From a virus (taxonomy: Duplodnaviria; Caudoviricetes), in IMG/VR virus record IMGVR_UViG_3300037418_002332: DNA of 64,000 bases. One strand, written 5' to 3'. The position numbers and the translations under genes are program-made. Under the pieces are notes generated by a model, which saw only the letters and a list, made by a program, of their open reading frames with translations, did not search any database and was not told the origin of the DNA. Below are positions 4,581 to 59,233 of the stretch, piece after piece (the stretch's first letter is position 1; every line of letters starts with the position of its first letter).

Positions 4581-4660
4581 TCCGGAAGGGGCTGCTTGGT
4601 GTGGCCGCCTGTCTTTGAAACAGGAGATTCAGCTTGGTTCGATGCCAAGGTCCGGAGCCA
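4581..4660 (+). tRNA. tRNA-Gln(TTG), second copy
   Basis: CCTGT-CTTTGAA-ACAGG, CCA. Confidence 0.8.
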
Positions 4661-4740: not shown

Positions 4741-4829
4741 TGGAGAATGCGCGAATTGGCAAGCGGTCAGACTCTGAATCTGAAGCCTGAGTAATCTCAG
4801 TCCTGGTTCGAACCCAGGTTCTCCAGCCA
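4741..4829 (+). tRNA. tRNA-Gln(CTG) with long variable arm
   Basis: TCAGA-CTCTGAA-TCTGA, V-arm CTGAG-TAAT-CTCAG, U1-A72, G73, CCA. Confidence 0.85.
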
Positions 4830-5632: not shown

Positions 5633-5765
5633 TAGGTGATGTTATGACTTTTAGGTTCGGTGGTCTCGCGATTTTGATTATTGTGTTGGCGATACTTTAT
5701 CGTCCAACGGAAACTGGTCATGCCTTCAATCTATTCTGGTTGGCTTTGACTGGACAATATTAATT

Positions 5766-5856
5766 GCGCGTAAGCATGGGTATGCAGAGGAAGCTTATAA
5801 CTTCTTTACCCTAGATTGGGGTCTTTGACAAGGTTCAAGTCCTTGTGCGCGCACCA
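5766..5856 (+). tRNA. atypical tRNA-Ile(TAT), mini D-arm and long variable region
   Basis: GCGCGTA/TGCGCGC, GCAT-GGGT-ATGC, GGAAG-CTTATAA-CTTCT, CAAGG-TTCAAGT-CCTTG, CCA. Confidence 0.7.
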
Positions 5857-19622: not shown

Positions 19623-20075
19623 ATGAAACATATCATATCAGCCGCCATTGCCTTTGCTGTTAAGCATCACGAAGGCCAATTCGACAAGGCTGGTATGCCT
19701 TACATCCTTCATCCTTTGAAGGTTATGTATTATGTTAAATCCAATGATGAAGAGTTGATGGCAATTGCTGTCCTCCATGATGTCATTGAAGATTGTTTCA
19801 CTCATGATCATGAAGCTGGCTATGCAGCTTTGAAGGCAATCGGAATGACACCACGAGTCATTGCTGGTGTTCGAGCCTTGACCAAGATCAAGGGAACCAA
19901 ATACGAAGATTACATTGACAATTTGATTGCAAATATTGATGCGGTCAAGGTCAAGATGGCTGATTTGCGCCATAACATGGATGTTCGCCGTTTACTCGGC
20001 GTCACCGACAAAGACATTAAACGCATTGAAAAATATGCGAAAACCTATCACAGATTAGAAGGAGTATTGGGATGA
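19623..20075 (+). CDS. HD-domain (p)ppGpp hydrolase-like protein (SpoT/Mesh1 family)
   Basis: HEGQFDKAGMPYILHP, AVLHDVIED, VKMADLRHN. Confidence 0.85.
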   Translation: MKHIISAAIAFAVKHHEGQFDKAGMPYILHPLKVMYYVKSNDEELMAIAVLHDVIEDCFTHDHEAGYAALKAIGMTPRVIAGVRALTKIKGTKYEDYIDNLIANIDAVKVKMADLRHNMDVRRLLGVTDKDIKRIEKYAKTYHRLEGVLG

Positions 20076-57412: not shown

Positions 57413-57440
57413 TTTACTTTTCAACGGGTTAGTTTATAAT
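57413..57440 (+). promoter_or_regulatory. early promoter
   Basis: TTTACT-16-TATAAT. Confidence 0.7.
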
Positions 57441-57752: not shown

Positions 57753-58430
57753 GGTGAGGTGATGGACCGCGACACGGTAAAAGAAGAAATTCTTAGAGAT
57801 CTTAAGGGTCTCACCGATGGTCGCTATTTCACCAGAGTTTCGAAAGGTCTTGGACAATTGTTCCGTGAAATGGAACAGAATGGTTTAATCAAAATCAACA
57901 AGGTTTTGATTGAAGGCCGGAAACATCGTATAACGCAAGTCATTGCGTTGATGGAGAAACTCGATGGGTGAAAAAGTCACAGTTCAGAGACTTGAACTCG
58001 ATGACCGTGAGTTGGAGGACTATCTGTCCACCGCTTACGAAAACGGAAGCGAATTGCTGAGTCTCCAGCAAATTCCGAATGATAGTGGAGAGATTCGAAT
58101 TCGTGATGAACCTCTTCATAAATTTCTCATCGTGTTGAGGGAACTATGATCAACATTATTCCTGGAACGGGTGTCCTGATTGAACGTGGCTCTGGAAAGT
58201 ATCTTGAGATCACGGAAGCAGTTGATGTGAAATTTCAATCCAGCTGGCAAAATGCTACTGTGATTGAGAAAGTGAAGTGGGATAATCCTGACTTGCGTCA
58301 ACAGATGATCGACTTCCATGAATTGAATTACACGGCTCATACATTGGAATTTGTTCCAATGGAAAAGTTGCTCGATCCTTTCGGGGATTGGCCTGAGCCT
58401 GATGAGGGTGACATGCGTCACTGAAGTTTT

Positions 58431-58565
58431 GCGGTATCAGTAAGCGAAAGCCTTAGAAACCTTTGTGAAGTGCGCATTACACAAAGGCAGACTCTGGTTA
58501 GTAGTGAGGTGGTCCTTCTGAGCGTGTTCATCACGTGGGGAGTTCGATCCTCTCCTACCGCTCCA
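58431..58565 (+). ncRNA. 135-nt tRNA-shaped RNA with anticodon loop replaced by 57-nt insert
   Basis: GCGGTA/TACCGC, GC-GAAA-GC, CTTAGAA/TTCTGAG, V-arm CGTG/CACG, T-arm with TTCGATC, TCCA end. Confidence 0.65.
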
Positions 58566-58571
58566 AAGTTT

Positions 58572-58976
58572 CTATTTGGTGTAAAAGCTAAATAGGATTG
58601 TTGCCGTTGATATTTCAACGTTAAGGTGTGGAACACGCGGGTGCAATTCCCGCCGTCTCCACCATGGCTAAAACGAGACTGGACTGGTCATGTTTACATG
58701 ATTCGGAAAAGCGTACAGATGTTATGTTAGTTAGTCAATAATCTTCGAGAAATCGCCATTATTGAGGTTGACATAGCTTGAAATCGTTTTAGCTTTGATG
58801 GGGACGAATTAGGATCGACTCCGCGCGCATAGGAAGAAAAGTAGGCAATTCGCTGACCGAGCGGTCAAACAAAATAAAGGACAACGATAACTTCGTTCCT
58901 ATGGCAGTTGCTGCGTAAGCAGTAGACTCCAATGAGCTTTTGCCGGTTTTGGCTTGGAAACAGAACAAAACCGGCA
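58572..58976 (+). ncRNA. ssrA: circularly permuted two-piece tmRNA
   Basis: acceptor piece GCGGG-TGCAATT-CCCGC-CGTCTCC-ACCA (ends 58664) precedes GGGGACG (58800), G3.U70; tag ORF 58880-58918 DNDNFVPMAVAA*. Confidence 0.92.
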
Positions 58977-59233
58977 TTCATTACATTCAACGAAGATTTC
59001 TCTTTACTCAATGAAATGTTTCAGTTATTGTTATTATAGTGGTAATGGAGATTGAAATGGCCGCTATTTCTGACGCTGAATGGGTAAAGCTGGTTCGTGA
59101 TGAGGTGTTGCGGGCTTTGATGCTTTCGCCTCTGACTAAAAATGAAATTTTGGATCTTCTTGATTCTCTGCGCGCTGAAGTGGCTGCGCAGCCGGTTTCT
59201 AAGGTGACTCCTTCGGTCTGAGGTTCTTTTAAT

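Follow-up and report, generated by a model that had tools for sequence, protein, structure and literature searches.

The window analysed here, a stretch of 64 kb, corresponds to positions 41197-105196 of the 247-kb genome of an uncultured T4-like phage (G000:C1). On its + strand at 58431-58565 it carries a gene for a 135-nt tRNA-like RNA, which occupies the coding strand of a 141-nt coding-free gap in this compact phage genome. The stop codon of a 92-aa ORFan (58146-58424, + strand, from the ORF list) lies 6 nt 5' of the RNA, and a two-piece (permuted) tmRNA gene (58566-59009, + strand) follows it. All genes near 58431-58565 are on the + strand, and G+C content is about 41%.

The tmRNA was called by ARAGORN (as permuted, 58572-59009) and by Rfam (RF04321, 81.8 bits; RF01849, 77 bits; alpha_tmRNA bounds 58566-58976), and its structured part begins at 58602. 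It encodes the tag DNDNFVPMAVAA, has a G3.U70 pair of its own and is complete by itself according to the Rfam models. Depending on the bounds taken, its start lies 1-37 nt beyond the CCA of the tRNA-like RNA, that is, after a spacer of 0-36 nt. The segment between the CCA and the structured tmRNA (58566-58601, + strand), which the Rfam alpha_tmRNA model covers with unstructured 5' positions, consists of AAGUUU and then an 11-bp hairpin (58570-58597; z = -5.1, with none of 200 shuffles equally stable). This A/U-rich spacer is a candidate entry site for an endonuclease that would free both RNAs.

The tRNA island of the phage, with more than 30 genes, extends from 33 kb to 59 kb of the genome, and the 135-nt RNA gene is located about 40 kb away from it. 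Comparison of the NMNAT protein places Sinorhizobium phiM12, phiM7 and phiN3 closest among cultured phages (∼51% identity), which fits the alphaproteobacterial type of the tmRNA; we are probably dealing with a very distant T4-type soil phage whose host is a soil alphaproteobacterium. Among 5.8 billion proteins the 92-aa ORF has no homologue except itself and a flanking 213-aa ORF has none, so synteny gave no handle on relatives of the RNA. No tRNA-related Pfam or PHROG family is represented among the neighbouring proteins.

Sequence anatomy of the tRNA-like RNA

The RNA combines an acceptor/T minihelix with an extra hairpin, a rod of ∼85 nt, a discriminator U and CCA, as read from the sequence and delimited by ARAGORN (-i -ps80). 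The 5' acceptor strand GCGGTA (58431-58436) is partnered by TACCGC at 58556-58561, so that G1-A6 pair with T126-C131 over 6 bp (pair probabilities 0.88-1.0). The place of the D-arm and anticodon arm is taken by an 85-nt core (58437-58521, from MFE and ensemble). At the position of the variable arm there is an extra hairpin (58522-58536; a G.U pair plus CGTG/CACG, loop TTCAT; 0.9-1.0), followed by the T-arm (58537-58555; GGGGAG/CTCTCC, loop TTCGATC; 0.86-0.88), which matches the GTTCRANYC motif at 58542, and by discriminator U73 with an encoded CCA (58562-58565, the CCA itself at 58563-58565). The acceptor with its TCCA end, the V-arm and the canonical T-arm had all been proposed in the initial annotation, and sequence and ensemble agree on each of them.

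The T-arm has 6 bp, including one G.U, with G53-C61 and a UUCGAUC loop, and it is stacked directly on the acceptor with no gap. The stack is therefore made of 6 + 6 bp rather than 7 + 5 and totals 12 bp. Enzymes that process tRNA ends measure a 12-bp acceptor/T minihelix, and 6 + 6 also satisfies them. The base before G1 is U (U-1), and the encoded CCA is shared with nearly all tRNA genes of the phage.

We scanned the genome, together with 40 shuffled genomes, for frames with a T-arm, a 7-nt acceptor and NCCA over a span of 95-200 nt. The real genome gave two matches, namely the RNA described here and a false 5' extension of a tRNA-Gly, and the shuffled genomes gave none (0/40), which argues that the tRNA frame is real and beyond chance. 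With introns allowed and the threshold lowered to 80% (-i -ps80), ARAGORN delimits exactly 58431-58565 and puts an 'intron' within a stem. Default ARAGORN and Rfam at gathering thresholds make no call; at E ≤ 10 the sole Rfam match is tRNA-Sec, to part of the 3' half (12.9 bits, E = 5.7), and no family of Rfam 15 was matched, including YrlA/Y RNA-like RNAs and skipping-rope tRNA mimics. A canonical tRNA was considered at this locus and rejected: a D-arm and an anticodon loop are missing, default ARAGORN gives no call and RF00005 no match at E ≤ 10.

Predicted fold

In the partition function the acceptor, T-arm and extra hairpin are joined as strong helices by an 8-bp hairpin CCTTTGTG/CACAAAGG (58460-58487, + strand, pair probability 0.98-0.99), which forms the tip of the predicted rod. 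The rod runs on from the acceptor through helices 7-10/88-91, 12-14/85-87, 16-17/83-84 and 20-25/75-80, with probabilities of 0.7-1.0 for the first, second and fourth of them. The RNA is thus modelled as a four-way junction of acceptor, rod, extra hairpin and T-arm with zero unpaired bases. Folding energy of the rod is no better than that of shuffles (z = -1.13), and the value for the whole RNA is z = -2.1.

A cloverleaf with a mini D-arm and a stem at the anticodon position, as first suggested, is disfavoured, the ensemble preferring the long interrupted rod. Complementarity for the mini D-arm (GC-GAAA-GC) is present, and its pair probability in the ensemble is ∼0. Likewise, the proposed 7-bp stem CTTAGAA/TTCTGAG (22-28/86-92) can be written and encloses exactly 57 nt as stated, but its ensemble probability is also ∼0; enforcing it raises the MFE from -44.9 to -38.7 kcal/mol, a difference of ∼6 kcal/mol. 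There is no D-arm with G18G19, as positions 7-21 give only GC-GAAA-GC and no GG, and the 5' part holds no obvious D-loop GG partner for the T-loop. An anticodon arm (5-bp stem, 7-nt loop with U33) is absent in either fold. With a rod of ∼85 nt in place of the D-arm and anticodon arm, the RNA cannot decode.

Acceptor identity and possible charging

The acceptor end is of the glycine type. G1-C72, C2-G71, G3-C70, G4-C69 and U73-CCA are identical to those of the phage tRNA-Gly(GCC) and tRNA-Gly(TCC), and within the phage genome the combination GCGG...CCGC-U-CCA occurs only in the two tRNA-Gly genes and in the 135-nt RNA. U73, G1-C72 and C2-G71 are the determinants that the bacterial glycine identity set places in the acceptor, and the TacT toxin reads the combination of U73 and G71 on Gly-tRNA (PMC9976931). 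The glycine determinants C35 and C36 are missing, there being no anticodon loop, and glycylation would for this reason be inefficient. Judging from the 12-bp acceptor/T stack, the encoded CCA and the glycine acceptor set, it is plausible that the RNA is chargeable, as had been supposed, and glycine would be the candidate amino acid if it is charged at all.

Homologue searches

A blastn search of 58300-59100 against GenBank phages returned no homologue of the RNA, and an exact 29-mer from it has zero occurrences in IMG/VR. A gapped acceptor/T-arm pattern was not matched in IMG/VR viral contigs or in JGI metagenome contigs, and in GTDB genomes it gave two chance matches, both without a T-stem. 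A covariance model of the RNA, run on its own genome and on 32 other phage records (including phiM12, phiN3 and Atu_ph07), recovered only the RNA itself; its weak junk matches were one antisense inside uvsY and one to a different insert-bearing tRNA-like RNA. A similar element is also absent from the loci of NMNAT relatives (≤54% identity) on contigs other than those of the two nearest, P0003 and P0004. Since no homologues were found, the fold is without covariation support, and the RNA taken alone is an orphan without comparative support. The insert pairs with the tmRNA no better than shuffles do, and the phage genome contains no words antisense to the insert beyond chance.

Resemblance to other tRNA-like RNAs

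Stable tRNA-like RNAs of phages, such as T4 RNA C, T4 RNA D and T5 RNA1, have been known since the 1970s, and we know of no function assigned to these three. RNAs C and D of T4 are expressed late and are stable, with roles described as unknown (PMC3014915, PMC9697503). T4 RNA C (species 1 RNA, rnaC; NC_000866 70908-71046) is ∼139 nt long compared with the 135 nt of our RNA, and both come from T4-type phages. An alignment of RNA C from four Tevenvirinae (T4, IME523, KM16 and KaAlpha) gives a consensus of acceptor, three-part rod, 10-bp extra hairpin and T-arm, in which 13 pairs are changed on both sides and 96.5% of cells are paired, against at most 47% when slid. The order of acceptor, rod, extra hairpin and T-arm, with no anticodon loop, is the same as in the fold predicted for the 135-nt RNA, the four-helix plan being based on covariation for T4 RNA C and on folding energy for the latter. 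The T-loops, UUCGAAU in T4 RNA C and UUCGAUC here, are also alike, and T4 RNA C is co-transcribed with tRNA-type genes.

The two RNAs differ in several respects. T4 RNA C has two U.U mismatches in the acceptor, an extra hairpin of 10 bp and no encoded CCA, and it is located at the end of a tRNA cluster, whereas the acceptor of the RNA described here is perfect and of the Gly type, its CCA is encoded, and its gene adjoins the tmRNA, 40 kb off the tRNA island. The model built from the four Tevenvirinae sequences, a narrow one, finds nothing at E ≤ 10 in the genome of our phage, so we do not file the 135-nt RNA in the T4 RNA C family. By blastn, T4 RNA C is confined to Tevenvirinae (748 records), with partial matches outside the closest genera, and judging by such matches fast divergence would be normal for this kind of RNA.

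T5 RNA1 (NC_005859 30501-30644), annotated as 'tRNA-like stable RNA with unknown functions', offers a second likeness: its 144 nt form a tRNA frame in which a lengthened arm replaces the normal anticodon arm, together with an extra hairpin and a T-arm. Unlike the RNA described here, it retains a D-arm with GG, looks like a derivative of a class II tRNA and sits in a tRNA region of a phage from an unrelated family. The tRNA-like domain of tmRNA is processed by tRNA enzymes. It shares with the 135-nt RNA an acceptor/T minihelix with CCA, the absence of an anticodon arm and a long helix off the junction; on the other hand, the 135-nt RNA has G3-C70 and bears an extra hairpin at its junction, and pseudoknots and a recognisable tag frame are missing from it. 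From tRNA-Gly it is set apart by the absence of a D-arm and of C35/C36, by the added hairpin and by the lack of a default ARAGORN or an RF00005 call. Oversized tRNA-type genes with 'enigmatic introns' were reported in Lak megaphages (PMC6784885), but these insert-bearing tRNAs keep an anticodon and become recognisable once the insert is removed, which our RNA does not.

We conclude that 58431-58565 is a gene for a non-decoding tRNA-like RNA of the T4 RNA C and T5 RNA1 kind, with a Gly-type acceptor. That the layout of acceptor, rod, extra hairpin and T-arm recurs without detectable homology argues for selection on the layout itself. The value of the present case is that of one more data point for a class deserving a proper survey. 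It also adds handles, namely a clean glycine-type acceptor end with encoded CCA and a position at which maturation of the 3' end of the RNA would generate the 5' end of a two-piece tmRNA.

Relation to the adjacent tmRNA gene

Co-transcription with ssrA, proposed in the initial annotation, is plausible from the arrangement of the locus, with an ORF stop 6 nt upstream, the tmRNA 1-37 nt downstream and no promoter-like site found between the upstream ORF and the tmRNA in a consensus scan. The nearest sigma-70-like site upstream of the RNA is TTTACT-16-TATAAT at 57413-57440 (+ strand). The number of such sites in this area equals the shuffle expectation, and the site is a possible transcript start for the small ORFs, the tRNA-like RNA and the tmRNA. 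In two other phages (L046 and L047) a promoter, TTGACA-N17-TATAAA, directly precedes the permuted tmRNA. With no promoter between the ORF and the tmRNA, the tmRNA of our phage probably relies on read-through from upstream, and the 135-nt RNA would then probably be processed from one transcript with it.

The linkage suggested for checking in other phages did not appear: none of the five related contigs in which the tmRNA is permuted has an insert-bearing tRNA-like element upstream, nor has any of 72 IMG/VR contigs with the alpha-type coding-piece motif. The statement that the RNA is not a second tmRNA holds. Its pair at the 3:70 position (G3-C129) is G-C rather than G3.U70, and neither ARAGORN -m at 80% nor the Rfam tmRNA models give any signal over 58431-58565.

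Two of the 72 IMG/VR contigs (L067 and L082) have an ordinary tRNA-Ile(TAT) of 91 nt shortly before the acceptor piece of their permuted alpha-type tmRNA, ∼170-260 nt 5' of the coding-piece motif. Thus, the tRNA-tmRNA tandem exists elsewhere, with an ordinary but long tRNA. Inside the intervening segment of our tmRNA we noticed TTGACA (58768-73), a 16-nt spacer and TAGCTT, followed by GGGG of the coding piece at 58800. The coding piece may accordingly own a weak promoter, on which the consensus scan made no call.

Origin and possible role of the RNA

Our preferred reading, held with moderate confidence, is that a genuine gene at 58431-58565 specifies a 135-nt tRNA mimic lacking an anticodon, which we propose to be released and to accumulate as a stable RNA. 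The mimic would keep the features read by end-processing and acceptor-end enzymes: the 12-bp minihelix, the T-loop, U-1, the discriminator U and CCA. One transcript would carry it along with the small ORFs upstream and the two-piece tmRNA. RNase P would cut at G1, and an endonuclease cut in the AAGUUU tract past the CCA, followed by exonuclease trimming, would release the RNA; the same cut would detach the tmRNA acceptor piece, at its 5' end, from the mRNA. These cuts, which would separate mRNA, mimic and tmRNA, are read from the anatomy of the locus. By analogy with T4 RNA C and T5 RNA1, the product would accumulate as a stable tRNA-like RNA. As a role for the mimic we would put first a sponge or decoy aimed at those host factors that recognise the acceptor ends of tRNAs and second a non-ribosomal carrier of glycine. 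Against all this it should be noted that simple punctuation of the transcript needs no 135-nt RNA, that the z-scores of the rod and of the whole RNA are only -1.13 and -2.1, that no homologue was found and that no linkage to ssrA is seen in 77 tmRNA-bearing viral contigs.

An alternative is a decaying relic derived from tRNA-Gly, its D-arm and anticodon arm overwritten, which would be functionless or tolerated only for its tRNA ends, still serving as a processing signal that separates mRNA and tmRNA. The match of the acceptor to the phage tRNA-Gly genes, the absence of homologues and paralogues, the stability of the rod not above that of shuffles, the neighbourhood of ORFans and the ordinary tRNAs adjoining permuted tmRNA in L067 and L082 all agree with it. 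However, the parts read by enzymes (T-loop, G53-C61, the 12-bp stack, U-1 and CCA) are flawless, both the 8-bp and the extra hairpin are nearly perfect, and 135 nt of junk is rarely retained in compact phage genomes; moreover, T4 RNA C and T5 RNA1, built on the same plan, are stable and expressed RNAs. We regard a relic as unlikely and rank it second, as functionless, after a tRNA mimic with a decoy or carrier role at the acceptor end and a part in tmRNA processing.

A bolder version of the mimic, in which the RNA, charged with glycine and lacking an anticodon, acts as a partner of the tmRNA, appears very unlikely to us. It would be either a second rescue RNA, its 10-codon frame ending in UAG UAG UGA and leading to release without tagging, or a non-ribosomal Gly carrier or decoy against acceptor-end toxins. 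If the carrier or decoy form were true, the Gly-tRNA pool of the host would be shielded from such toxins during infection.

It is still less probable that the RNA remains attached to the tmRNA acceptor piece as its 5' domain. The short spacer (0-36 nt) and the missing promoter between the two would allow this, but the boundary coincides exactly with an encoded N-CCA, the Rfam tmRNA models need no part of the RNA to be complete, and nothing comparable exists in 77 other permuted tmRNA genes.

A tRNA gene with an intron of ∼50-57 nt, spliced to give a working decoder, is suggested by the relaxed ARAGORN call at 58431-58565 and has some precedent in the enigmatic introns of Lak megaphage tRNAs (PMC6784885). 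That call needs the lowered threshold and puts the intron inside a stem. We removed every contiguous segment of 25-99 nt from the RNA and ran default ARAGORN on each of the 3,300 variants. No deletion yielded a tRNA (0/3,300), which makes an intron very unlikely, while a control, in which the same 57-nt insert was placed in the anticodon loop of a phage tRNA-Ser, was recovered as a tRNA 905 times. In addition, there is no D-arm, no 7-nt loop of the U33 type and no Rfam match to a tRNA or an intron, the insert is far below the size of group I introns, and the phage has neither a tRNA splicing endonuclease (PF01974) nor RtcB (PF01139). We give this explanation almost no credence.

Hardly to be believed, either, is a second, miniature rescue RNA, whose tRNA-like half would be charged with glycine and whose frame at nt 39-77 would lead to termination without a proteolysis tag. 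This frame (58469-58507 of the window), the sole one in the RNA, reads AGU GCG CAU UAC ACA AAG GCA GAC UCU GGU (nt 39-68, SAHYTKADSG) and then UAG UAG UGA (nt 69-77); a triple stop after at least eight open codons appears in just 0.6% of core shuffles, and the RNA adjoins ssrA and, like tmRNA, has no anticodon arm. Yet the triple stop was noticed post hoc, G3.U70, a pseudoknot and any ARAGORN -m or Rfam tmRNA signal are missing, part of the frame is hidden within the 8-bp hairpin, its peptide is unlike a tag and lacks the hydrophobic end of a tmRNA tag frame, and the phage encodes no SmpB.

Other oversized or non-standard tRNA frames

The initial annotation ascribed to the RNA the same body plan as that of a second frame of the window, at 53-220. 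This holds in part only. Like the 135-nt RNA, the 168-nt frame at 53-220 has a T-arm (5-6 bp), a short extra hairpin and a long rod, here capped by a perfect 18-bp hairpin. It departs from it in an acceptor of 8 bp, a real D-arm (6-7 bp, with a GGG loop), A73 and the absence of CCA. None of 6,000 single deletions from 53-220 produced an ARAGORN tRNA. The 9-nt loop of its hairpin (128-136) reads TTTCCTAAC in the window and the reverse complement, GTTAGGAAA, in the genome record. Two versions of one phage carry the loop in opposite orientations, and over the 64 kb they differ otherwise only by SNPs at 19856 and 27887.

The tRNA island holds non-standard genes beyond the 135-nt RNA and 53-220. 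The called tRNAs at 4581-4660, 4741-4829, 5765-5852 and 1244-1319 include several that are long for class I (Gln of 80 and 89 nt, Ile-TAT of 88 nt), and one of the four was called with a 2-nt 'anticodon'. In the genome 8 kb before the window, at G000:C1:33203-33277, a 75-nt sequence has a 7-bp acceptor GCTCTCG/CGAGAGC, a T-arm GCGGG-TTCGATT-CCCGC and TCCA, with no ARAGORN call; it may be another non-standard tRNA of the phage. Contigs found via NMNAT carry frames of 116-266 nt with a perfect acceptor and T-arm and an oversized middle (L053:2161-2276, L027:2099-2249, L026:19091-19232 and L028:5659-5924, the latter on the - strand). The L027 frame lies inside a tRNA array, and the L053 frame ends in UCCA.
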